DNA from: Nitrososphaerota archaeon
Lineage (GTDB): Archaea; Thermoproteota; Nitrososphaeria; Nitrososphaerales; UBA57
Assembly (NCBI GenBank): GCA_016871995.1
Contig: VHBL01000002.1
Span: 60,001-92,000, forward strand
Direction of reading: 5' to 3'
DNA: 32,000 nt
The notes beneath the pieces are model-generated. The model made no database searches, was not told where the DNA came from, and worked only from the letters and a program-made list of their open reading frames with translations. Position 1 is the stretch's first letter; every line of letters begins with the position of its first letter. Both the position numbers and the translations under genes were made by a program. Shown piece by piece: positions 17,062 to 30,213 of this stretch.

Positions 17062-19284
17062 ATGACAAAACAGATAACTCTGTTAAGTCTGATTGTGGCA
17101 ACGATCCTACTGACTTCAACGATACCTGCGTTTTCACAAGCACAAGTTCCAGGCGCAAATTGGGAAATGGCCAATTATGCCACCAATGGTGGCAGTTACA
17201 GTCCGCAGACACAGATAACTAGAGATAACGTACAATATCTAGAGACGAAGTGGGTCTTGCCGTTCCAATTGCTCCCGCAGATAAAAGGAGGCATCTCCAA
17301 CCCAACACCAGGAGCTATGAGCCCCCCGATAATTGTGGATGGCAAAGTCTACGTGGTGAAAAATAGTGGCCACATACTCGCAATAGACGCACAGACAGGT
17401 AAACAGATTTGGATGAGTCAGGGGTACTCCAATGTAAACTGGACAGCTTTTCAAGGGCGGTATCCTTGGATGGCCCCATACGCTGGCCACATCCATGCGA
17501 TGTACCACTATTCGGAAAAGGGCTGGCTCATGGTGAACAACAACTCTTGCTTTGCAAGAGCATGGAATATCAAAGATGGATCAGTAGCATGGGAGATGGG
17601 GCCTGAGCAGCTCTGCGGGACAAATGAGCAGATGGGTAACCCTGTTCTTGCGGCAAGGACTGCGGGGAGGGAAGGTATAGGCTCTCTAGGAAACCAAGGA
17701 TATATGGGCTCAAGGAGCAATCCACCAGCATTCTTGGGTAACATAATGGTCTGGCCATCTACTGGGGTTAGTGGTCAGGGAGGCAGATCAAGTATGATAG
17801 GCTTCGACATGAGCGATCCAAAGAATCCAAGGCAATTATGGAGGACATGGGTAGCGCCTCCAGCTCAAGGAGATCCAAATTGGGCCATTGACCAATGCAA
17901 GATTGCCAATGGAAATGGATGGTACTTCGAAGCGCCAAGGTTCTTCGAAACCCCTGGCTACAAGGCTACAAGGTGCACTGAAGTTCCAGATGATGTAGTA
18001 AGAAATGATTGGATTAACATGATACCAAACACTCCTCACTTCGGGAAGTTGCATACGGCAAGTTCGGTAACTTCCATCTGGGGCCATATGCCACTTGACC
18101 CAGAACTTGGACTAGTATATCTTGGATTTGGTGACTTGGGACCATATCCAAATTCGACATTCAAGTATGGGCCAAATCTGCATGGAAGCGGCTTTGTAGC
18201 GCTCGATGTCAGGACTGGCGCCCTCAAATGGTGGTTCGCAGCTAATCCTCACGATCTATGGGACTATGACTGCTCATGGGGCGGGATACTTGGAGAGGCA
18301 GCTGGTAAGAAGGTCTACATAAAGGCCTGCAAGAACGGAATAGTGTATGTATTGGACAGAGCTACTGGAGAGCCAGTATGGGTCTTTGATTCACCAACGA
18401 ACTGGAGGAGTACTCCAAACTGGAACTATGGTGTTGATAAGTCTGGAAATCCTAGGAGTCCAGATGCATGTTGCAGGATGACAAAGGAGCATATGAGCAA
18501 GCCATGGATGCACTATCCGAGCGAAGCACCAATTATAGGGCCTCAGGCATGGGCCTACATCGAATCAGACATAGCATATGATCCAACAAGAAAAGTGGTG
18601 TATGCAGGCACCTTCAACGCTATGCGGGAGTTGAAAATCACTAATTACAGAGACTTTGGTAACCAAGGCCAAACTACTAAAGCTAACGTGCATCCACACA
18701 ACGCAACTATAAACGCCTATGATATGAACACTGGAAAGATAAAATGGATGTACGGGCCCATTGATGGCGGCGGATTCAGAGGAGGCATTATGACCACTGG
18801 AGGCATGGTGATAGCATACATGAATGATGGGAACATTCACGTCGTCGACGCTGAAACTGGCCAACTGGTACGCAAAATGTTCTTTGGGCATCCTGTAAAT
18901 GTCATGCCGACGATAGGAGCTGACAAGAACGGGAAGTTCAAGCTCTTCATCTATGTAGGGGGCTCAGGCATACAGAGGTTCAACCCCGTTCAGATGGCTG
19001 ATCTGGAAGGCAGCTTGGTAGCATATGGATTGCCCGACAAACTCCCACAGCCTGAAGTAATCACAAAGGAAGTCATCAAGGAAGTAGTCAAAGAAGTACC
19101 AAAGGAAGTCATCAAGGAAGTAGTCAAAGAAGTACCAAAGGAAGTCATCAAGGAAGTAGTCAAAGAAGTACCAAAGGAAGTAACAGTAGAAACTATCAGT
19201 CCTATTTCGTATGCAGCGATAGGAATTGGAGTAGTAATGATAGTCATATCTGGAATACTATTCAGTAGAAGGAAGAAGGCATAG
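17062..19284 (+). CDS. PQQ-repeat beta-propeller protein (quinoprotein dehydrogenase-like), secreted, with a repeat stalk and C-terminal TM anchor
   Basis: A signal-like N-terminus is present. Repeated PQQ-type blades are visible: PIIVDGKVYVVKNSGHILAIDAQTGKQIW, GIVYVLDRATGEPVW, INAYDMNTGKIKWMY, GNIHVVDAETGQLV. The C-terminus is (KEVIKEVVKEVP)x3 followed by IGIGVVMIVISGILFSRRKKA. Confidence 0.7.
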   Translation: MTKQITLLSLIVATILLTSTIPAFSQAQVPGANWEMANYATNGGSYSPQTQITRDNVQYLETKWVLPFQLLPQIKGGISNPTPGAMSPPIIVDGKVYVVKNSGHILAIDAQTGKQIWMSQGYSNVNWTAFQGRYPWMAPYAGHIHAMYHYSEKGWLMVNNNSCFARAWNIKDGSVAWEMGPEQLCGTNEQMGNPVLAARTAGREGIGSLGNQGYMGSRSNPPAFLGNIMVWPSTGVSGQGGRSSMIGFDMSDPKNPRQLWRTWVAPPAQGDPNWAIDQCKIANGNGWYFEAPRFFETPGYKATRCTEVPDDVVRNDWINMIPNTPHFGKLHTASSVTSIWGHMPLDPELGLVYLGFGDLGPYPNSTFKYGPNLHGSGFVALDVRTGALKWWFAANPHDLWDYDCSWGGILGEAAGKKVYIKACKNGIVYVLDRATGEPVWVFDSPTNWRSTPNWNYGVDKSGNPRSPDACCRMTKEHMSKPWMHYPSEAPIIGPQAWAYIESDIAYDPTRKVVYAGTFNAMRELKITNYRDFGNQGQTTKANVHPHNATINAYDMNTGKIKWMYGPIDGGGFRGGIMTTGGMVIAYMNDGNIHVVDAETGQLVRKMFFGHPVNVMPTIGADKNGKFKLFIYVGGSGIQRFNPVQMADLEGSLVAYGLPDKLPQPEVITKEVIKEVVKEVPKEVIKEVVKEVPKEVIKEVVKEVPKEVTVETISPISYAAIGIGVVMIVISGILFSRRKKA
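19069..19176 (+). repeat. Perfect 3 x 36-bp tandem repeat inside the PQQ-propeller gene
   Basis: gaagtcatcaaggaagtagtcaaagaagtaccaaag occurs at 19069-19104, 19105-19140 and 19141-19176 with no mismatch. It is flanked by degenerate partial copies and is in frame (EVIKEVVKEVPK x3). Confidence 0.95.
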
Positions 19285-20322: not shown

Positions 20323-21381
20323 CTATAGATTAACTAGTTGGTTGTTTAGCATAACTTGAAACCTGTTGCTCCGAGCCTCATCTCTTAGGTGCTGAAAGAC
20401 CTTCTCCTTTTTCAAATCTTCTGATTTCAGGTCTGAACCAGTCGTGAGCAGTAACACGGGAATTGGTATAGCCTGCTCAGAGTCCACCTTTACATTTCGC
20501 AGATTTGTGTAAAGAATCATCCTCAGTAAGCCATCTTTGATGTCTTCGAGAGAAGGTAGATGAGATGTTTTGGTGTGCTTTCCCTCGATTAGAAGTATCT
20601 TGCCGTTTTCTCTGCGTGCCTCGTCCACTGTAAAGAAATAATTCCCGCCCAGATAGTTCTTAATGGTTATTGATGCCTTAACTCCTGATAACTTCTCCTT
20701 TGGTTGAACCGTAACTACCTCGCGATTTTGAGCTTTCTCCGCTAGCTCCCGTGATAAAGGCAGGAAAACATCTCTACCTTTGACAAGTTCTGAAATTCTT
20801 TTCCTTGCAGATTCTGCTGAATGCATTTTGATATTTAGAGCATGGGATATGCTGCCGTACGACCGCAAGGCCATATTCGCTAATTCCCCAACCTTGTCAA
20901 TCTGTGTCATATTCCAATGAAGAGCGTCGGATTGGTAATAGAGCAGTTCACCTAATTGTGCCTTTAGATAATCCACATCATACCTCTGGTTCGTGATTTT
21001 GTTCCTATAGTCTGGATTTTTGGTTGCAGATTTGTAGTACGCTATTATCACATATACTCCAAGTAGGCTCATTAACGAAACTGTGTCCCATTGTAGGAAA
21101 TCCCTATCACCGTCTTTGCCTTCGTCCTTGAAAATCGGGATTATCGTAACCTTCTTACCTTGAAAAGTTAATGTATCATAAAGCCTTGCATATGGATAGG
21201 ATCTAGTGCGCTTAGCTGATACCCACCAACTTACAGCGAATATCTTGCCTCCATCCATTTCAAGAAGAAATGATGCGTCTGTCGATAGCGCTCTTGCCAA
21301 TTCGGATAGCGGATATTTGCGGAGCTCTCTTGGCAGTTTCGGTATATACTTTATTCCAGTAATCTCAGCCGTAATCTTCAT
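20323..21381 (-). CDS. Putative type II restriction endonuclease (PD-(D/E)xK-like core)
   Basis: The 352-aa ORF starts 4 nt after the methyltransferase stop on the same strand. The C-terminal FFTVDEARRENGKILLIEGKHTK gives a D...E-x-K spacing typical of PD-(D/E)xK nucleases. No other family was recognised. Confidence 0.5.
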   Translation of the reverse strand: MKITAEITGIKYIPKLPRELRKYPLSELARALSTDASFLLEMDGGKIFAVSWWVSAKRTRSYPYARLYDTLTFQGKKVTIIPIFKDEGKDGDRDFLQWDTVSLMSLLGVYVIIAYYKSATKNPDYRNKITNQRYDVDYLKAQLGELLYYQSDALHWNMTQIDKVGELANMALRSYGSISHALNIKMHSAESARKRISELVKGRDVFLPLSRELAEKAQNREVVTVQPKEKLSGVKASITIKNYLGGNYFFTVDEARRENGKILLIEGKHTKTSHLPSLEDIKDGLLRMILYTNLRNVKVDSEQAIPIPVLLLTTGSDLKSEDLKKEKVFQHLRDEARSNRFQVMLNNQLVNL

Positions 21382-21385
21382 AAAA

Positions 21386-22324
21386 TCAACTGGTAGCTAC
21401 GCTTTCTTTCTGCTTGACAATTTTCTGGAGGCTGGTTCGATAGTGTGCAGCATCAGCTCTTTCAACAATTTCGGTTTTGTCATTTGAGAGAGTAGATTGT
21501 CTGATGCCAAGCTTCTCCGCAATGATAGGTTTCAATTCCAAATCCAGTTCGTAACCGAATGAATTTCTTCCAAGCTCTTTCGCAACTTTCAGCGTCGTTC
21601 CCGAACCTGCAAATGGATCTAAAACATTCTCGCCCACAAATGTAAAGAGCTTGATTAGTCGTCTGGGAATTTCGTCGGGGAAAGCCGCAATACCTTCTTC
21701 TAACCTGCCCTTCATCGGCAATACATTCGTAATTTGCCATGTATCTGGAATCGCTTTCCTTTCACCCGCGATATCGTCCCAAACTGTGAAAGGTATACTC
21801 CTCCCGTTGAACTCTTTAACATCAATCCTAGACGCTTCGACTACTTCAGAGGAAAGTTTCTTCAAATAAGAATAGTCGAACCTGCCCTTCTGAAAAATCA
21901 GAATACTTTCCTGCATGTTATCTGGATAGAAATACATTGGGTATGGATGCTGCAGCAAAACACCGCTTCTTCGACTGATACGAACATATCCCTTGGGCTT
22001 CATCCAAACAATTCTATCCCTATACCTGAATCCAGCTCGCGTCATGATTTTGGTTATGTCAGCAACGACTGGAAATTTTTCTCCGTCTACCAACATGTCA
22101 TCCACCACGAAGCAACATACCCTACCCTGGGCTACAACCCTCTTCAGTTCCTTCGCTACTCCTTTGATGAGGTCTAAGAAATCCTTGTATGTTTTGAAAA
22201 AATCTGGATAATCAAAAGGAGCATTGAAATACGGAGGGGACGTGACCACAAGATGAATGCTATTTTTGGGTAGCTCCTTCATGCTAAGAGCATTACCAAA
22301 TATTACTTTGTGAGCAGTCCCCAT
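21386..22324 (-). CDS. Beta-class N4/N6 DNA methyltransferase (SPPY motif, probably N4-cytosine)
   Basis: Motif IV VVTSPPYFNAPFDY is near the N-terminus and motif I LDPFAGSGTTLKVAKELGRNSFGYELD is near the C-terminus. This is the circular permutation of the N6_N4 MTase (beta) group. Confidence 0.85.
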   Translation of the reverse strand: MGTAHKVIFGNALSMKELPKNSIHLVVTSPPYFNAPFDYPDFFKTYKDFLDLIKGVAKELKRVVAQGRVCCFVVDDMLVDGEKFPVVADITKIMTRAGFRYRDRIVWMKPKGYVRISRRSGVLLQHPYPMYFYPDNMQESILIFQKGRFDYSYLKKLSSEVVEASRIDVKEFNGRSIPFTVWDDIAGERKAIPDTWQITNVLPMKGRLEEGIAAFPDEIPRRLIKLFTFVGENVLDPFAGSGTTLKVAKELGRNSFGYELDLELKPIIAEKLGIRQSTLSNDKTEIVERADAAHYRTSLQKIVKQKESVATS

Positions 22325-22604: not shown

Positions 22605-24380
22605 ATGAAATTCTGCCCGGTGTGTAGCAGCCGAATGAAACTCATTGGAGGTACGAGTTTCGTCTGTGTTAGATGCGGAAACAGAGACGTAGGAGAAAGC
22701 CGAGCACGGCAGGAGCCCATTACATTGAGAAATTGTTTTCCGTTCAAATCTGTTAGACCATCTCAGGAGGCCATCCTTAAGGAATTAGAGGCAGTTTTAC
22801 AATCCAAGAAGTTTATCATCCTAGAGGCACCTGTAGGTTTCGGAAAGTCTGCTGTCGCTGTAGCACTCTGCAAATACCTTGGCTCAGCTCACATACTCAC
22901 GGCTACAAAGCAGCTTCAAGATCAATATTCCAGTAATTTCCATTATCCAACGATCAAAGGTAAAGGTAACTTCCAATGCCATGTCAGGACAACATCTGGG
23001 GCTCTATTGCCCTGTAGTATGGGCAGATGCTTGGTCGATTGGGATCTGAACGATTGTCCTCATTACCTATCATTTGAGGAATACAAACAGCACAAGAACA
23101 ACTCTTGCAGTAGAGATTCAAAATGCGAACATCTCAAGGATAGAAAACAATGCACGTACTATGAACAGAAGTGGTACGGCCTTATGAGTCCAGTTGCTGT
23201 CTACAACTATTCTTTTCTCCTTAGCGAGTTGAAGTACGCCAAGAACGTTCCCAAGAAGAAGTTACTGGTATGTGACGAAGCTCACGATCTAGAAAAGCAG
23301 ATAGTTGGTTTCGCATCATTCCAGCTAAAGAAGAGTAACTTGCAGCCATACCATGACGAGCTAAGGCCAGGCGAGGAGTTTGAGATTGCGCATAAAGGTC
23401 AAGACGACCCAGCAGCATGGCTGGATGTATTATCCAATGCGAAGGATCTGTTAGATGAATACCTCGGAATTCATAAGGAAGCTGACGAAGCGCAGGACAA
23501 GGTTGCGGTATGCAAGAACATGCTGGAATCTTTAGAGAGTTGTATGGATAGCATCAAAACGAACAGTACGAATTGGGTAGTCAACAACGTAAAGGTAAAC
23601 GGCAACCTCTCTGTTGAAGAGGTTACTTTTCAGCCATTAAACACCAGTAGTTACACATCACCTCTCTTCGAGATAGCTGATAAGGTTCTGATGATGTCAG
23701 CGACAATCTTTTCTGATGAAAGGCTGTACAAATCGCTTGGAATACTTGCTTCAGAAGCTGCTATCATCAGGGTTCAGGATTCAGCCTTTCCAGTTAAGAA
23801 TAGGCCAATTTACGCTTTGAATACTGCTGCCCTCAACAAAGCAAGCATGGATTCATCGCTCGAGAGTATTGCACTAGCCATTGACAAAATAATGGATCGC
23901 CATGCCAATGAAAGAGGCATTGTACATACGACTTCTTACACGCAGGCCAGGTATATTGTTGGACATGTTTCAGAGCCAAATAGAAAAAGGCTCATTAATA
24001 CAGAAGGCAGTTTTGACAGGTCAATTCTCATAAGGATGCATGGGGCGAGCGATGCTTCAGTCCTTATCTCTCCCAGCCTTCACGAAGGAGTAGATCTGAA
24101 AGATGATTTATCAAGGTTCCAGGTTATTGTGAAAGTGCCATATCCAGATCTTTCGGATAGAAGGACCAAGACTATACTCCAAATGGACAGGGCTTGGTAT
24201 GATTGGCAGACTGCCCAAAGGCTCGTACAAACCTATGGAAGAAGTGTTAGGAGTGAAACAGATCATGCAATTACATATGTCCTCGATTCGAACTTTACAA
24301 GATTTGTTAATACAAACAGGGACCTGTTCCCCAAGTATTTTCTTGATGCGATAAAAGTTGGGGAACCTTTCAGGAATTAG
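22605..24380 (+). CDS. XPD/Rad3/DinG-family (SF2, DEAH) helicase with N-terminal zinc ribbon and Cys-rich putative Fe-S insert
   Basis: The N-terminus is CPVCSSRMKLIGGTSFVCVRCGN. Walker A is EAPVGFGKS. A Cys cluster lies between motifs I and II (FQCH...LPCSMGRC...DCPHY...C...C...C). Further motifs are the DEAH box VCDEAHDL, MSATI, VHTTSY, SPSLHEGVDLKDD and motif VI QTYGRSVRSETDHA. Confidence 0.8.
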   Translation: MKFCPVCSSRMKLIGGTSFVCVRCGNRDVGESRARQEPITLRNCFPFKSVRPSQEAILKELEAVLQSKKFIILEAPVGFGKSAVAVALCKYLGSAHILTATKQLQDQYSSNFHYPTIKGKGNFQCHVRTTSGALLPCSMGRCLVDWDLNDCPHYLSFEEYKQHKNNSCSRDSKCEHLKDRKQCTYYEQKWYGLMSPVAVYNYSFLLSELKYAKNVPKKKLLVCDEAHDLEKQIVGFASFQLKKSNLQPYHDELRPGEEFEIAHKGQDDPAAWLDVLSNAKDLLDEYLGIHKEADEAQDKVAVCKNMLESLESCMDSIKTNSTNWVVNNVKVNGNLSVEEVTFQPLNTSSYTSPLFEIADKVLMMSATIFSDERLYKSLGILASEAAIIRVQDSAFPVKNRPIYALNTAALNKASMDSSLESIALAIDKIMDRHANERGIVHTTSYTQARYIVGHVSEPNRKRLINTEGSFDRSILIRMHGASDASVLISPSLHEGVDLKDDLSRFQVIVKVPYPDLSDRRTKTILQMDRAWYDWQTAQRLVQTYGRSVRSETDHAITYVLDSNFTRFVNTNRDLFPKYFLDAIKVGEPFRN

Positions 24381-24479: not shown

Positions 24480-25187
24480 ATGGTAAGTATCTATGGTACT
24501 GAAGGGCAACTTCTTGAGCATCTAGCCCTCCATGGACAGCTCAGCATTAGCCAACTCAAACGGGAGTCTGGTTTATCATATCCCACCGTATTTTACAGTA
24601 CTTCTTCCATTCCTATAGTTTCTTTCGAGAAAATAGGTAAAGAAAAGAAAGCGAGGATTAGAGATGATGTCATCGATATCGTCTATCCTTTTCTAATATC
24701 TATGCAAACTAGCAAGGAGAAGAGGGTGCAACTGGCGATAGCCTATCTCGCCAGAAAAGGACTTGATAAGCCGCTAATCGGCGGCGAGCTAGCTCTTCAG
24801 ATGCAGCTATATGTAAAGGATGCGGAACCTGATCCTCAAGTCGAAATTAGGACAAGCCATCCCTCAAAGCTTCGCAATTATCTTAAGAAAGCTCTACAAG
24901 GTAAGATCTGCACAGAACTACTATCAAGTATACAAATAGTCCGCGATAGCTACCTGTCACCTGCAACACGCATGGGACTGATATCGGTATCGAAGCCTGA
25001 AAAACTACTAGTTGATGCTATAGCCGAACATAAACCAGCAGTATTAATTGAGAATATTGCAGAAGCGATTGTAAACTCTTCACGAGCGATTAATACCAAA
25101 TTGCTAGAGTCATATGCTGGGATGCGGGGCGTCTTGAAAGAAACACAAAATGAAATAAAGAAAGCGCAGGAGTCTGGCTTCCCATAG
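24480..25187 (+). CDS. AbiEi-like antitoxin/transcriptional regulator (N-terminal wHTH)
   Basis: The N-terminal LLEHLALHGQLSISQLKRESGLSYPTV is a wHTH. The C-terminal GLISVSKPEKLLVDAIAEHKP...LLESYAGMRG resembles the AbiEi C-terminal domain pattern (vS-pE-tLlDll ... l-yA). It is followed by an AbiEii-like ORF. Confidence 0.5.
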   Translation: MVSIYGTEGQLLEHLALHGQLSISQLKRESGLSYPTVFYSTSSIPIVSFEKIGKEKKARIRDDVIDIVYPFLISMQTSKEKRVQLAIAYLARKGLDKPLIGGELALQMQLYVKDAEPDPQVEIRTSHPSKLRNYLKKALQGKICTELLSSIQIVRDSYLSPATRMGLISVSKPEKLLVDAIAEHKPAVLIENIAEAIVNSSRAINTKLLESYAGMRGVLKETQNEIKKAQESGFP

Positions 25188-25222
25188 TTTCAAACAGTCA
25201 GATACGTCAGATTGCCCAGAAG

Positions 25223-25549
25223 TTGGGCTTTAACGAAGCGTTTGTCGAGAGAGAATATCACCTTATGGTGACTATCGAAGATCTCCGTCAGAGGGGCTTA
25301 ATGAATGAAAACCCACTCTGTTTGGGAGGTGGTCATGGAGCTAGGGCGTATCTGCCTGTGGACCTCCAGCGATTCAGTATTGATTTGGATTTCTATTCAA
25401 ATTGTGGGGACATCCATGACATTAAGAATGACCTATCAAAAGTACCAGGTTTCAAGGTCATAGGTTACGGAGAACAGACTGAAGGACGATTCAAGAGGTA
25501 CGACTCATTGCCACCCAAAAGCCTCAAAAATGTACAATTGCTTTCATAA
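25223..25549 (+). pseudogene. AbiEii/AbiGii-family nucleotidyltransferase toxin, N-terminal fragment only (about 108 of an expected 230-300 aa)
   Basis: IAQKLGFNEAFVEREYHLMVTIEDL and CLGGGHGARAYLPVDLQRFSIDLDFYS match the family opening (ia-g-ieKDy...L and GGtAl...R-S-DlDf). The ORF stops at 25549, where it collides with a convergent minus-strand ORF ending at 25544. There is no canonical start upstream of the TTG at 25223. Confidence 0.6.
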
Positions 25550-25840
25550 AAGAGTACAAACGGTCATTATCTCGGCTGCGATTTCTGGAGTGCCAGCTAT
25601 TGCGTCATATCTTCCGGTTCTAGAATTGATCCAATGGATTTTAGGATCCATCAAAAGGCCACGAAGTTCTCCTTCGGAATAGTACCTAGGTTCTTCCTTG
25701 GCGAAATCCTCCTCGTACGTTGTTACTATCCATTCTCTATTTTTAAGGAGCCTTGTTAGTCTACTGATAGCCGTAGAGTCCTTGTTTTCCAGATATTTGC
25801 GAAGGTTCGCCTTGTCCTTACCTTTTTTTAGGCATAGCTT
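25544..25840 (-). CDS. Winged-helix-like ORF with no start codon (98 codons), in the +1 frame of the HerA-like gene 3' end
   Basis: The minus frame is open from 25840 to the TGA at 25546-25544. It reads KLCLKKGKDKANLRKYLENKDSTAISRLTRLLKNREWIVTTYEEDFAKEEPRYYSEGELRGLLMDPKIHWINSRTGRYDAIAGTPEIAAEIMTVCTLL. No ATG/GTG/TTG occurs before codon 63. The helix-turn-helix-wing pattern looks protein-like. Confidence 0.4.
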   Translation of the reverse strand, partial: KLCLKKGKDKANLRKYLENKDSTAISRLTRLLKNREWIVTTYEEDFAKEEPRYYSEGELRGLLMDPKIHWINSRTGRYDAIAGTPEIAAEIMTVCTLL

Positions 25841-27644
25841 TCAGAAAATTCTTCAATATGTCCTCGTTATTTTCTGCGTGGAAGAAGACCGGAATGTTCT
25901 GAGTTGCCGTTGCTTTGAAACTAGTAAGCAACCAGTCCCCATTCTGGAATGAAAGTGTTCTATCCATGAATGCATCATCTATTGCAAACATATCTGATAT
26001 CAATTGCCTATCATATGGTCTGGGCATCGTTGATACAAAGTAGCTGTGCAATTGCTGCAACGCATTAGTATTGAGATTAGCTATTCTTTGGGTGCTTATC
26101 CATCCGTGCAGATGATACTTCCTACCATGTCGTAATAATCTTTCTACAGTTCTGCTTGCCTGATCCGTGCCATCTTCTTTCCTTGTGTCTCGTGGCATAA
26201 ACTCTTGAGCCTCATCAATTATGAAAAGTATTCTAGGAGTCAGAGTGAAACTTCTTTTCCTCTTGCGAAAGACATTTGCTATTACTGATGACGTCTGAAG
26301 CCTAGCATCTTCAGCTTCCGGGAGATTTACTACAAATAGCCTAGGAGAATCCTTCTTGGTCGAGAGCATTTCATCTACAAGGTTATCCCACGTGTACTGT
26401 TCCTCTCCATCTTTCTGGCCGTCCTCGCTTGGATTTCTATCAATAACCTTCTGAAGGCTATCGAAGGTCTTCTTCAAAGAACTGCTAGCAGGTAGATCTT
26501 CAAGTAATGGTTGCACTTGCCGAATAAGCTTTGATGTCCTTGAGTCAAATGAGCTCTCCCGCTCTAATTTGTTAGAATCTAGGAACTCTTCCATCATCTT
26601 GATAATTTCAGGGACAAGGAGCTTACCTTGGACTGCGCCATACTTGTCGTTAAGAGTAGTTGACAGGACATCTATTAATCCTCCATAAGTGCTGAACATT
26701 TTGATTCCTTCCTGTCCAGCCAGAGGCATCTCCACGAATCTGACCTTGTCATCTCTGAACAAAGAAGAGATTTTCTCTACGAATTTATCTTCCAATTCAA
26801 CTAATGATTCTGGAACTGCATGCCTCCTGAAGTATTCTCTTGCAGTATCTTCAGCCTCAGCAAAATTTTCCGCAAATAGTATCCTGCTTGGATATTTGTC
26901 AAGGACATCAAGGATATGGATCCCGTACTCCGAGGAAACATCGAATATCACTATCTTCAGATCTGGAATTACTTGAAGGGCCTTTCTTACAACCATTGCC
27001 GTCATATTCGACTTTCCTGAACCTGTAAAGGCGAAGACTCCAACGTGGTAGTGAACAAGCTTCTCTATGTCGACAGTGAAGGGTATGTTCTCCTCAACAA
27101 CTCCTAGGAGATGTCCAAAGGAATAGTCTTCTTCGTTGGATTTGGGGACATAACAGATCAACTTCTGGATTGATTCTTTGCTCAGTAAATTAACTGTGCT
27201 GCCTGTAAGTGGAGCAAAAGGTTTCTTTTCAAACGCTATCTGATCAGCATTGACCTTCATCACGTAGCCCGTTGGGGCTGCGACGATTTCTATCCAAGTG
27301 CTCTTGGAACCCTTCTCCCATTCATCTTGAATGAGCTCCATGAACTCTTTTCTGATAGTTGCGGGCTGGGATCTATCCAAGGTTAGCATTGAGTAGTGCA
27401 TCGGATAGACATCTGCAATTTCGTAGATAGAGTAGGTATCGTGCGAGCCAAGGGTCTGCACATTGGGTATTGCTACAAGCTGTCCTGCTGAAAGTCTCTT
27501 TATCACGTTGGGCGTGTAATCGCATTCAATTCTAGCAGTTCTGAAAGTGATGGTTGATAGACCATCAGTTGTTGTGCGGGTAGTGGACACAATTTCCCTT
27601 AGCTTTCCTTGGAATTCACCATTAAGATCGTCAAAGACTGGCAA
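25818..27644 (-). CDS. HerA-like (FtsK/HerA superfamily, DUF87-type) ATPase
   Basis: An N-terminal barrel-like region (GQLVAIPNVQ...YSIYEIADVY) is followed by Walker A HVGVFAFTGSGKSN and Walker B RILFIIDEAQEFMP. LLRHGRKYHLHGWISTQRIANL matches eGRK-g-l-l-tQRp of HerA. The start is TTG at 27644, 2 nt after the upstream stop. Confidence 0.8.
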   Translation of the reverse strand: MPVFDDLNGEFQGKLREIVSTTRTTTDGLSTITFRTARIECDYTPNVIKRLSAGQLVAIPNVQTLGSHDTYSIYEIADVYPMHYSMLTLDRSQPATIRKEFMELIQDEWEKGSKSTWIEIVAAPTGYVMKVNADQIAFEKKPFAPLTGSTVNLLSKESIQKLICYVPKSNEEDYSFGHLLGVVEENIPFTVDIEKLVHYHVGVFAFTGSGKSNMTAMVVRKALQVIPDLKIVIFDVSSEYGIHILDVLDKYPSRILFAENFAEAEDTAREYFRRHAVPESLVELEDKFVEKISSLFRDDKVRFVEMPLAGQEGIKMFSTYGGLIDVLSTTLNDKYGAVQGKLLVPEIIKMMEEFLDSNKLERESSFDSRTSKLIRQVQPLLEDLPASSSLKKTFDSLQKVIDRNPSEDGQKDGEEQYTWDNLVDEMLSTKKDSPRLFVVNLPEAEDARLQTSSVIANVFRKRKRSFTLTPRILFIIDEAQEFMPRDTRKEDGTDQASRTVERLLRHGRKYHLHGWISTQRIANLNTNALQQLHSYFVSTMPRPYDRQLISDMFAIDDAFMDRTLSFQNGDWLLTSFKATATQNIPVFFHAENNEDILKNFLKAMPKKR

Positions 27645-27646
27645 GG

Positions 27647-29458
27647 TTAACTCTTCCTCCCCGCTTCAATCTTGGACCTGTAGTCTCTAAACCTGCTGGA
27701 GAACAATACTTGCTGATCCAAATCTGATCTGCTCATTTCTAACGCTACAACTGCAAGATATGCCTCCCTATTCTGGCCCAAGTTGGCTTTCGCTTTCTTA
27801 TCTGCAAGGAATAATGGATAGTTGTGCCCTATCGCTTCGGGAATAACTTCTTTACTCATTTGTACCAAGATGGCCATGGCAAGGTTAGTCATCTCAGAGC
27901 CCCTCTCGAAGTGCAGGATGGGGCGGATCTTTTCATCGACTTTTGAATCTTCGTTGTGCAGAAGGATTTCATCCCAATGATCGTATGCTGGGTAAGCAGG
28001 CCTGTCATAGCTGAAGACATGGCTTCTAACTGCAGGGTTCTTCTTGCTGCTCCATAGCTGGATGTATGTCTTGACGTACATCCTTTCAGGATAGATGACG
28101 TTCTTGAACGCTCCATTTACTCTGGCCTCGCCTTTTGGTAATGTAGTATCTTTTACAGGTGCCATCGTCTTGAATGCAGCATCAGTTTCTATGGTGTGCC
28201 AAGGAGTTGGAACCTCTGATGAGTTGATGACGCTGTTCATCTGCAGGAGCATCTTATCGCTGCGGAAGTCTGGAATTTTGTGATTGAGTTTGATCTTGCC
28301 TGCGTTTTGTAGAATTGGTATGACCGTCTTGACAAGTTCCGCAGCAGCAATATCCTTGATGAGTCCTATTAGGAGCAAGTTGTCTGTCCACGCTTTTCTC
28401 GTTAGAGCTTGGACGAATATGAGGGTAAGAAAATCAATATCATCTGCAGTTATCCAAAATTCTTGGCCTTTTTTCTTGAATCTAAGTGGATGGTCTCCTT
28501 GAGGATTGAATATATGATCAGCTACGATATGGGCTGCCTCCAGGACTCTATCCCAGTACTTTGATACTCTATCTTTTAGCTTGTAGTTCATGACCTGCTG
28601 GAAGATGTGATGTTCATTTTCCAGCTCACCAAAATCCTTCTGGAGCTTTGAAAACCTGTTCTGGTTTGCACCTAGCCTTCCAATTAGCTGTTGCAAGTTT
28701 AGGAGTTGGCCATCAAAGAGATGTTCGATGGCAGCATACTTGACAAGATGGCTCCTTGGTGCTGGAATTTTGAGCTCTTTGTTTGGTAAGAGCATCCTAG
28801 CAAGTTGAAGATCAAAGTTGTCTATCACCCCATCCTTGGTCTCCATGCCTTCTAGAATGCAGAGATGATCTTCGATTAGGTCTTTGGTGCTCCAGTTCAG
28901 ATGGGCATGATCTCCAGCTATAGTTCTGTCTAGAATGATTATTTTGAGAGCATCGCGTGCTGTTGTTGCTTTGAATGCCAAATAGTACTCTGCAAGGTGC
29001 ATCAGGGCTCCTGGGAGTCTTTGAGGGTCAACTTCAATACCAGATTGTGTCTTCTGGCCGAATATGTTAGCAGCATCTTCTTCTGAAATCGGGATAGCAG
29101 CAGATACAGAGAATTCTGTTCCGAGCTGTTTTGGATCTGAAACTACTATTTCCTTACCGAGAAATTTGATATTACCAGAGTAACCGAATGCCCCTACATA
29201 GAACACTATGAGATCGAGTTGCTGATCTACAGAATCGGTGCCATCGATGGCTATGTATTCAATTTCTTCTTTTCCGAAAAAGGACTCTGCTGTTGAACAT
29301 GCACTCGGAAAGTTTACTCCAAATCGTAGAAGCTGCTTTACGTCTCCTCTAGATTCTTCCAACTGGGCTAACTTTGTCTTGAAGGATTCAAGGAGGAAAC
29401 GTGTAGAACTCTGAACTCCCTCTATCGTACGTGACTCTGGAGTGAAGGGAGAAGACAT
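27647..29458 (-). CDS. Large NurA-like (RNase H-fold nuclease) protein, 603 aa
   Basis: YIAIDGTDS (NurA motif a-DGS), IIILDRTIAGD (l-lDGsl-like) and the C-terminal GHNYPLFLADKKAK (yP-L-aH/D-a) are visible. It sits immediately upstream of and is coupled to the HerA-like ATPase. The assignment rests on recalled motifs only. Confidence 0.5.
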   Translation of the reverse strand: MSSPFTPESRTIEGVQSSTRFLLESFKTKLAQLEESRGDVKQLLRFGVNFPSACSTAESFFGKEEIEYIAIDGTDSVDQQLDLIVFYVGAFGYSGNIKFLGKEIVVSDPKQLGTEFSVSAAIPISEEDAANIFGQKTQSGIEVDPQRLPGALMHLAEYYLAFKATTARDALKIIILDRTIAGDHAHLNWSTKDLIEDHLCILEGMETKDGVIDNFDLQLARMLLPNKELKIPAPRSHLVKYAAIEHLFDGQLLNLQQLIGRLGANQNRFSKLQKDFGELENEHHIFQQVMNYKLKDRVSKYWDRVLEAAHIVADHIFNPQGDHPLRFKKKGQEFWITADDIDFLTLIFVQALTRKAWTDNLLLIGLIKDIAAAELVKTVIPILQNAGKIKLNHKIPDFRSDKMLLQMNSVINSSEVPTPWHTIETDAAFKTMAPVKDTTLPKGEARVNGAFKNVIYPERMYVKTYIQLWSSKKNPAVRSHVFSYDRPAYPAYDHWDEILLHNEDSKVDEKIRPILHFERGSEMTNLAMAILVQMSKEVIPEAIGHNYPLFLADKKAKANLGQNREAYLAVVALEMSRSDLDQQVLFSSRFRDYRSKIEAGRKS

Positions 29459-29473
29459 TTGAAGGCACTTGCG

Positions 29474-30100
29474 TCAAGATATATGAGGCGCGGTTGTTAA
29501 ACTATTTGGATATGGAACAATCTTTGTCTCATGATCTTTATTGGAATAGTAGGCGTATTTTTCAAAATAAGGCGCGAGATCTACTCCATTCTGACGTATG
29601 ATGAATTTGCCGCCAACCTTGTCTATATTGAAGGTGTATCCTTTTCTATCAGGCCAGTAGCGCGGGGGAACCTTAGAGAACGGAATTACGAATGTATCGG
29701 CCGTAGTCTTTTCGTGATAGACTACGAAGCAATTTTCACCTTGCCTTGAAGCATCTTCCATGAACTCGACTTTCTTCCCGTCTAGACCTATCCAGCGGGC
29801 TTCTAACGTAACATGTCTTCCTCCTACTGCGATTGTACCATGAACTTTGTTTGGTCCATCTAGAGAGAAAGTTTGTCTCCCAAAGTGTTTGGGTAAAAGT
29901 TTGTAACCCTTTTTTGTAGCTTCGTCCTGCAGTTTGTCTATTATTTGCTCAACATCCAGGTACCGACCCTTTCTTGAAATTCCAGATGTAGTACTTAGTA
30001 CAGCGGCAGATCCGATCGGTCTAGTACTTTGTACTGGAGCCGGTGGTTGAACTGTACTATCTAAGATCCTAACAGGCGTTCCACGCCTGTGTAGGGAATC
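29474..30100 (-). CDS. Hypothetical protein, first gene of the NurA/HerA-like cassette; 209 open codons but no canonical start before the ATG at 29761
   Basis: The track ORF (95 aa, ATG 29761) continues upstream in frame to 30100. That stretch looks protein-like (GRYLDVEQIIDKLQDEATKKGYKLLPKHFGRQTFSLDGPNKVHGTIAVGGRHVTLEARWIGLDGKKVEF) and contains no in-frame ATG/GTG/TTG. The stop is 15 nt before the NurA-like ATG. Confidence 0.5.
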   Translation of the reverse strand, partial: DSLHRRGTPVRILDSTVQPPAPVQSTRPIGSAAVLSTTSGISRKGRYLDVEQIIDKLQDEATKKGYKLLPKHFGRQTFSLDGPNKVHGTIAVGGRHVTLEARWIGLDGKKVEFMEDASRQGENCFVVYHEKTTADTFVIPFSKVPPRYWPDRKGYTFNIDKVGGKFIIRQNGVDLAPYFEKYAYYSNKDHETKIVPYPNSLTTAPHIS

Positions 30101-30123
30101 CTATTTAAGAACTCAAATAGTAG

Positions 30124-30213
30124 CGGGCCCGGTGGGATTTGAACCCACGACCTTCGGCTCCGGAGGCCTGCGCTGAAGAATCAACGCCCTGATCCATGCT
30201 AGGCTACGGGCCC
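30124..30213 (-). tRNA. tRNA-Arg (anticodon CCG) with a ~14-nt non-canonical insertion/intron
   Basis: The minus strand reads GGGCCCG-TA-GCCT-AGCATGGATCA-GGGC-G-TT[GATTCTTCAGCGCA]GGC-CTCCGGA-GCCGA-AGGTC-GTGGG-TTCAAAT-CCCAC-CGGGCCC-G. The acceptor, D and T arms are canonical. The anticodon stem TTGGC/GCCGA forms only if 14 nt are removed. The loop CTCCGGA gives anticodon CCG. No CCA is encoded. Confidence 0.75.

Follow-up and report, generated by a model that had tools for sequence, protein, structure and literature searches.

A long NurA–HerA gene pair of Nitrososphaerota: a distinct, vertically inherited variant with a likely role in genome maintenance

We describe a two-gene unit encoded in a 32,000-nucleotide (nt) stretch of a Nitrososphaerota archaeon genome (GenBank assembly GCA_016871995.1, contig VHBL01000002.1, positions 60,001 to 92,000 of the forward strand; hereafter, the window). 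The unit consists of a gene for a long, predicted nuclease of the NurA family and a gene for an ATPase of the HerA family. It is a NurA–HerA system, a kind already known; it is not a SIR2-HerA system, a DUF4297-HerA system, or a four-gene cassette. Within its kind it is a distinct variant: the nuclease is longer and carries a winged-helix-like insertion, its fourth metal ligand is acidic, there is no mre11-rad50, and the Pfam model misses it. We read the pair as a long NurA–HerA operon that serves genome maintenance rather than as mobile defense cargo, with a probability of roughly three in four. That role is the more likely one because the pair, on comparison of loci, is a vertically inherited chromosomal resident that is also present in other archaeal phyla. 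An earlier note, drawn from the DNA letters, had grouped the pair with two small flanking frames, orfX and a winged helix-turn-helix (wHTH) frame, as a candidate new defense module.

Both genes lie on the minus strand, and their open reading frames (ORFs) were confirmed (Table 1). The nuclease gene opens with ATG and encodes 603 amino acids (aa); the ATPase gene opens with TTG and encodes 608 aa; 2 nt separate them. The frame 5′ of the nuclease gene stops at 29474, with 15 nt to the ATG at 29458. The coordinates, the spacings, and all six motifs quoted in the earlier note were borne out by the ORF list and a motif check. The same 4.65–4.8 kb is identical in two independent assemblies, and the 603-aa protein is 100% identical to FJ358_06080 of a Thaumarchaeota archaeon, which is annotated “hypothetical protein.”

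The fold of the 603-aa protein is that of NurA. An AlphaFold 2 (AF2) model, built with 40 homologues, reached a predicted local distance difference test (pLDDT) score of 79 and a predicted template modeling score (pTM) of 0.84. The top 10 Protein Data Bank (PDB) matches of this model in Foldseek are all NurA (probability 1.0, E 2.7e-8 to 1e-6), and include the Thermococcus kodakarensis HerA–NurA complex, Pyrococcus furiosus NurA (Pf NurA), and Sulfolobus solfataricus NurA; the template modeling (TM) score is 0.60 when normalized to the S. solfataricus chain 2ygk_A. RNase H, EndoV, and RAG1 rank far behind, and 1zup is among the weaker fold matches. Sequence searches with the protein itself gave no match in Pfam (even at E=10), PADLOC, NCBIfam, or PHROGs. 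The sole PDB match in phmmer, a PAPS reductase (E 0.017), was treated as chance.

Alignment of relatives points to the same family and to its active site. For a profile of 35 diverse relatives, the top PDB sequence match is Pf NurA (3tai, E 0.0012), and the match consists of exactly three stretches: aIDGT on avDGS, LLDRsLSG on LMDGTLTG, and GHNxPLflADKxAK on GGYLRPLQLAHHGVK. In this alignment, D72, D177, and D553 of the window protein fall on Asp51, Asp126, and His411 of Pf NurA (numbered with the 20-residue tag offset of 3tai removed). Chae et al. showed these three residues to be metal ligands and noted that an acidic residue replaces His411 in TmNurA and Argonaute (PMC3300031). Across the 35 relatives, down to 19% identity, D72, E157, and D177 never vary, and D553 hardly does. 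E157 is the probable equivalent of Pf NurA Glu105, although we infer the exact correspondence. The C-terminal motif quoted by the earlier note, NYPLFLADKKAK, lies at residues 546–557. Pfam NurA (PF09376) is matched by 21 of the 35 relatives (best 2.8e-11), and a precomputed match to this model exists for one relative at 58% identity. Membership in the family is transitive, because the window protein itself has no Pfam match but its relatives match PF09376; its sequence identity to the solved NurAs is only 10–12%. The model and the conserved motifs argue for a divergent NurA that is probably active, and the earlier note was right both in calling this partner NurA-like and in finding it larger than characterized NurAs.

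Solved NurA chains have 319–430 residues, so the 603-aa protein is approximately 150–280 residues longer. This extra length is owed in part to an inserted winged-helix-like domain. In the AF2 model, residues 239–294 form an H-H-H-strand-strand pattern (H, helix) with pLDDT 84–93; profile columns 231–332 weakly match the winged-helix domains of MarR, Z-alpha, LrpA, and TFIIE-beta (E 0.02–1), and individual relatives weakly match TrmB, HTH_24, AsnC-type, and HTH_20 (E ~1e-3). Literature searches returned no description of a winged-helix-bearing NurA, and only generic mentions of a nurA-herA pair in Thaumarchaeota. One family member (P0256) is longer still, at 897 aa; its extra N-terminal region of approximately 340 aa bears a D...D.K-like motif and may be a fused second nuclease domain.

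The 608-aa protein is, by its profile matches, a HerA-family ATPase, as the earlier note had held. Pfam DUF87 (PF01935) matches with an E-value of 2.7e-14 and 54.2 bits against a cutoff of 23.2; many PADLOC HerA profiles match, the best of which is PDLC01055 (6.3e-31, nearly full length); and HerA chains in the PDB match with E-values down to 1e-10, from repair and defense complexes alike. Its Walker A motif FTGSGKSN and Walker B motif IIDEAQEF occupy residues 206–213 and 475–482, and a further motif, GRKYHLHGWISTQR, occupies residues 507–520. The profile checks that the earlier note had suggested came out unevenly for the two genes: PF01935 was found on the ATPase, but PF09376 only on relatives of the nuclease, and PADLOC matched the ATPase through its HerA profiles but gave nothing for the nuclease partner. 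The HerA equivalogs of NCBIfam were not reached, neither those for double-strand break (DSB) repair (NF040819, 47.6 versus 970 bits; NF040937, 44.2 versus 800) nor those for anti-phage systems (NF042943, 73.6 versus 800 bits; NF042944, 43.1 versus 850). By these scores, the window HerA is outside both curated subfamilies.

Two features of HerA genes deserve mention. In a Nitrososphaerota metagenome-assembled genome (MAG), the HerA orthologue (locus L037) holds an in-frame LAGLIDADG intein of approximately 526 aa in the Walker A loop (L037:10465-12050), with the boundaries AF/S...LLGYFAAEGN...HN/TGSGKSN, where slashes mark the junctions. Inteins are typical of long-conserved DNA-metabolism genes. 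In the window, the 3′ end of the HerA gene reads ...ATG CCT AAA AAA AGG TAA (25818–25840, minus strand). The 98-codon frame downstream is in the +1 frame and opens at this A7 run, which is followed by AGG and the stop; a +1 slip or a 1-nt indel at the run would add approximately 90 residues to HerA. No relative has such a C-terminal extension, and a +1 fusion is probably meaningless. A random sequencing error in the A7 run was considered and rejected, given the identity of the two independent assemblies over this region.

The two genes travel together. The NurA-like family comprises more than 300 clusters at 90% identity, of approximately 600 aa, and 304 representatives at 50% clustering; its named members are all annotated “hypothetical protein.” In 65 of 66 fetched loci, HerA comes directly after the NurA-like gene, on the same strand; the exception stops at a contig edge. 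Ten further loci show the same order wherever the contig continues past the nuclease gene. The genes are 0–170 nt apart or overlap; most often the spacing is 2 nt or there is an overlap, which suggests translational coupling. As judged by conservation across loci, the unit comprises only these two genes and not the flanking frames.

The pair is present in at least 60 species-representative genomes, as found by a scan of one genome per GTDB species; the scan used a closer alignment (A1) and two exact peptide patterns, is biased to Nitrososphaerota, and yields a lower bound. The labels of these 60 genomes are nearly all Nitrososphaerota or Thaumarchaeota: acid-soil and peat lineages, Conexivisphaerales, and Nitrososphaeraceae including Nitrososphaera sp. 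AFS. Three carry other labels (a Methanomethylicaceae-labelled MAG, a “bacterium”-labelled MAG, and a “Thermoproteota” MAG). The pair is single-copy in all of the genomes but one, a MAG. More distant NurA-like relatives, at 25–33% identity, occur in Bathyarchaeia, Thermoplasmataceae, and Ca. Culexmicrobium (Culexarchaeia), and one such distant locus (L067) is again paired with a DUF87 gene, with ribosomal and metabolic genes around it. Searches of IMG/VR, PLSDB, and phage GenBank yielded no relatives; the last two collections are weak tests for archaea.

Gene order and sequence divergence both point to vertical inheritance. In 17 loci, the pair sits in a common block: TetR, thermosome, pterin-4a dehydratase, NTP_transf_5, the pair, an MFS transporter, a CoA-binding protein, a trypsin/PDZ protease, and an NTP-transferase. 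A second clade of six loci has a different conserved block around the pair. Pairwise identities of the NurA-like protein correlate with those of the adjacent thermosome (r=0.91, 16 genomes) and of HerA (r=0.97, 46 loci); these correlations are descriptive only, as genome pairs are non-independent. By these comparisons, the pair is inherited vertically across Nitrososphaerota and is a chromosomal resident. Neither mre11 nor rad50 was found in the window, where profile searches of the window genes agreed with the earlier note, or in 11 annotated neighborhoods. The neighborhood survey that the note had called for returned a strictly linked pair and the housekeeping blocks, but no orfX, wHTH frame, or mre11-rad50 beside it. 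The note had also described what a housekeeping role would look like: the pair is conserved, single-copy, and syntenic, as it had said, but the synteny is with general housekeeping genes and not with repair genes. In one Conexivisphaerales MAG (L076, 5198–9567), a divergent block adjoins the pair: an unannotated 282-aa gene, an Lhr-type helicase (881 aa), and a Metallophos phosphoesterase. This helicase–phosphoesterase pairing presumably resembles a repair-type gene pair; the Lhr/Metallophos adjacency is not repeated at the other loci.

Comparison with known systems places the pair beside the canonical archaeal HerA–NurA (2ygk/4d2i, 3tai, 9x1l–9x1p), which provides its best structural matches. 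Both have an RNase-H-fold NurA beside HerA in an operon, the catalytic Asp-Glu-Asp with a fourth metal ligand, and the HerA Walker A and B motifs. The window nuclease differs in its greater length, its winged-helix-like insertion, and an Asp instead of His as the fourth ligand; nurA precedes herA, and mre11-rad50, part of the canonical mre11-rad50-herA-nurA operon, is not next to the pair in the loci examined; and the hosts of the long pair are mostly mesophilic Nitrososphaerota, whereas those of the canonical HerA–NurA are hyperthermophiles. The bacterial HerA–NurA of Deinococcus-Thermus (TmNurA, 1zup) is likewise a stand-alone two-gene module without Mre11-Rad50 linkage, and TmNurA has an acidic residue at the position of Pf His411, as does the window nuclease (PMC3300031). 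Bacterial NurAs, however, are approximately 330 aa long, lack the insertion, and have no detectable sequence similarity; the window pair is archaeal and vertically inherited. The anti-phage systems SIR2-HerA and DUF4297-HerA also join a HerA-family ATPase to an adjacent effector, and the window HerA matches their solved chains (8j4u, 8wiv, 8yho, 9c1m) in the region of the P-loop. In the window, by contrast, the effector is NurA-like, has no PADLOC or Pfam match to those effector families, and lies in a conserved chromosomal context rather than a patchy defense island. Finally, the best, nearly full-length profile of the window HerA, PDLC01055, is labelled “HerA, Type III coevolved,” after CRISPR type III-linked HerA; its 106 bits over approximately 530 positions make the relationship remote. 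Clusters of nurA, csm6, and herA in Pyrobaculum have been cited (PMC12977600). No cas gene, csm6, or CRISPR array was found in the window or in the annotated neighborhoods of relatives.

With gene identities, fold, catalytic motifs, strict pairing, vertical inheritance, and synteny in hand, we infer complex formation, activity, and biological role by analogy with the solved HerA–NurA complexes. On that model, the pair most likely processes or degrades DNA ends. A hexameric HerA ring, powered by ATP, would drive the ends of duplex DNA into a NurA dimer, and the strands would be cut at the two-metal site of NurA, formed by D72, D177, D553, and probably E157. The outcome would be the processive processing or degradation of linear DNA ends, with the winged-helix-like insertion probably adding a contact to DNA or to HerA. 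Such an activity could serve end processing for recombination and repair, or the clearance of broken and linear DNA. Recognition of the nuclease as NurA gives Nitrososphaerota (including relatives of ammonia oxidizers), Bathyarchaeia, and Thermoplasmataceae a HerA–NurA machine that standard annotation has missed; it adds no new class of defense system. Since the variant differs in its longer nuclease, its winged-helix insertion, and its lack of mre11-rad50 linkage, the long pair is a natural comparison case for HerA–NurA in end resection versus in the destruction of foreign DNA (PMC12977600).

Table 1. Positions of the pair, its motifs, and neighboring features in the window.
Feature	Position	Strand	Basis
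Long NurA-family nuclease gene (603 aa)	27647..29458	-	ORF list, AF2 model, Foldseek, family profile
HerA-family hexameric ATPase/translocase gene (608 aa)	25818..27644	-	PF01935, PADLOC PDLC01055, PDB HerA chains
NurA motif I IAIDGTDS (residues 69–76; D72)	29231..29254	-	Invariant D72; 3tai alignment
Helix AEYYLAF (E157)	28973..28993	-	Invariant E157; adjacent YLAY aligns to Pf NurA YLAY
NurA motif ILDRTIAGD (residues 175–183; D177)	28910..28936	-	Invariant D177; aligns to LMDGTLTG of 3tai
Inserted winged-helix-like domain (approximately residues 235–300)	28559..28756	-	Model and weak profile matches
C-terminal NurA motif GHNYPLFLADKKAK (D553)	27788..27829	-	Aligns to GGYLRPLQLAHHGVK of 3tai
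HerA Walker A	27006..27029	-	Motif check
HerA Walker B	26199..26222	-	Motif check
orfX, 5′-truncated remnant of the gene for a 230-aa ribbon-helix-helix (RHH)-domain protein	29474..30094	-	P0315 alignment
“wHTH” open frame, unsupported as gene	25544..25840	-	No start, homologue, or profile match
Intron-containing tRNA gene bordering truncated orfX	30123..30213	-	ARAGORN; Rfam tRNA 44.4 bits
DinG/XPD-like helicase, N-terminal zinc ribbon	22605..24380	+	PADLOC type IV-A CRISPR-associated DinG, 1.4e-65, full length
AbiEi-like ORF (235 aa) and AbiEii-like fragment	24480..25549	+	Weak AbiEi, E 3.9e-4; DUF6577, 0.0026
N6/N4 DNA methylase, then 352-aa ORF 4 nt downstream	20323..22324	-	Methylase 4.2e-39

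The two small frames at either end of the pair tell a different story from the pair itself. The orfX frame is open from 30100, but its first 113 codons contain no ATG, GTG, or TTG, and the residual ORF is 95 aa long, from an ATG at 29761. Among 5.8 billion proteins, orfX has a single homologue (P0315, 230 aa), to which it is 72–75% identical over residues 42–223 of P0315. It lacks the first 41 residues of that protein, which comprise an RHH-like N-terminus and the start codon; the break abuts the tRNA gene, and the missing residues would fall where the tRNA gene now sits. By this alignment, orfX is a 5′-truncated remnant and not an intact gene, which accounts for the “ORF with no start codon” of the earlier note: the startless frame was real, the gene was not whole. 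An AF2 model of the intact homologue reached only pLDDT 38, and metagenome scans gave no relatives of it. A hint of RecU/PD-(D/E)xK for orfX (E 0.025–0.17) was weak and remains unsupported.

The wHTH frame fares worse as a gene. It runs from 25840 to 25544, overlaps the HerA stop, and has 62 codons without a start before a 36-codon ORF. It has no match in Pfam, PADLOC, NCBIfam, or PHROGs, even at E=10, no homologue in related loci or JGI metagenomes, and is not called as a gene in the independent public assemblies. An open frame of approximately 100 codons is unremarkable at 42% GC, and the ORF list contains many comparable spurious frames. None of the approximately 75 related loci, including relatives of 87–88% identity, has orfX or the wHTH frame; both are debris of local rearrangements beside a tRNA gene and a variable patch of restriction-modification (R-M), DinG, and AbiE genes. 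That tRNA gene is 91 nt long, with an apparent intron and an anticodon that ARAGORN left unassigned. It is the only one that ARAGORN and Rfam find in the window, so the “tRNA-flanked” island of the earlier note has a tRNA on one side at most, and no att-like direct repeat of the tRNA end was found between 19000 and 31000. In a marine relative (L072), a fragment matching the 3′ half of the tRNA sits just downstream of HerA.

How do these findings bear on the competing accounts of the pair? The four-gene reading, in which orfX, the nuclease, HerA, and the wHTH frame form a new HerA-based defense cassette in a tRNA-flanked island, drew on four co-directional, tightly packed frames with a tRNA gene at one end and defense-type genes on the other side. 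On present data it is effectively refuted: orfX is truncated, the wHTH frame is unsupported, neither occurs at any related locus, only one tRNA gene is present, and no direct repeat bounding an island was found. Nor did the broader proposal of a new defense module survive, as what is conserved is a two-gene pair, single-copy in all but one MAG, in housekeeping synteny and co-diverging with the thermosome gene. A role in other DNA translocation, for example in resolving chromosomes during division or in taking up DNA, where the nuclease would trim ends, is also very improbable. FtsK is missing from archaea, and a part in division has been suggested for HerA (PMC12977600); the window HerA also weakly matches the Ced DNA-import ATPases CedD and CedB. 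These scores are far below cutoff (35.7 versus 600 bits), however, no membrane or pilus genes are conserved beside the pair, and an obligate nuclease partner better suits end processing.

The more serious question is whether the pair is primarily an innate anti-virus or anti-plasmid machine, one fixed in the chromosome that, like RecBCD, would destroy foreign DNA in linear form. Several observations weigh against genome maintenance and toward this account. The T. kodakarensis HerA–NurA breaks down both strands irrespective of how the end is structured, and the authors of that work argue that it may serve defense (PMC12977600); in proven defense systems, HerA is joined to a SIR2 or DUF4297 effector; the best PADLOC profile of the window HerA bears the “Type III coevolved” label; the pair borders R-M, DinG, or AbiE genes in the window, in L004, and in L005; and vertical inheritance is compatible with an immune role. 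Other points also count against the main reading: the classical repair linkage is missing, as no mre11 or rad50 adjoins the pair in the contexts examined; the scan counts presences and not absences, so the pair is at most a candidate core gene; and NurA membership itself combines a predicted structure, a motif-level profile alignment, and transitive homology for a protein that fails every sequence-profile library. Yet the pair lacks the marks of defense-island cargo. It stands in housekeeping synteny in 17 and 6 loci, co-diverges with the thermosome gene, is single-copy, and has no viral, plasmid, or phage copies; its defense-type neighbors are not conserved; the nuclease has no PADLOC match; and the anti-phage HerA model of NCBIfam scores 73.6 bits against 800. 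The findings are compatible with a defense role but do not demand one, and we consider a primarily immune function unlikely. We regard as more speculative still the idea that the pair does both jobs in the manner of RecBCD, as a machine fixed across the phylum that destroys linear viral and plasmid DNA and feeds recombinational repair, with the winged-helix insertion as a switch or recognition element absent from canonical HerA–NurA. If true, the long nuclease would be the “missing” NurA of lineages that have no annotated one.

The neighbors themselves vary between loci. The earlier note had listed an R-M pair, an XPD/DinG-like helicase, and AbiE remnants; the methylase, the helicase, a weak AbiEi, and a truncated AbiEii were found, but the 352-aa ORF beside the methylase, its supposed “restriction” partner, matches no family. 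No cas genes lie near the helicase. It recurs once, in L005, at 61% identity and again convergent with HerA, where it is followed by a PD-(D/E)xK/Exo5/Cas4-like nuclease; a remnant of that nuclease was sought in the window, and none was found. Of the AbiEii-like nucleotidyltransferase, only the first 108 residues remain, and by these weak matches the AbiE-like ORFs, which lie between DinG and HerA, are a decayed pair of the toxin-antitoxin or abortive-infection kind. The methylase and its 352-aa neighbor are possibly a type II R-M pair with an endonuclease of an orphan family. The site after HerA seems to collect R-M genes, because L004, the closest relative, holds a different methylase (26% identity) directly after HerA. 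The AbiE-like ORFs, the methylase, and the 352-aa ORF were found in none of the other related loci, and, on this distribution, the R-M, DinG, and AbiE neighbors are lineage-specific. Elsewhere in the window, a 740-aa PQQ beta-propeller protein has a C-terminal KEV(I/V)-type repeat, which is encoded at 19043–19193 on the plus strand by at least nine 12-nt units in tandem.

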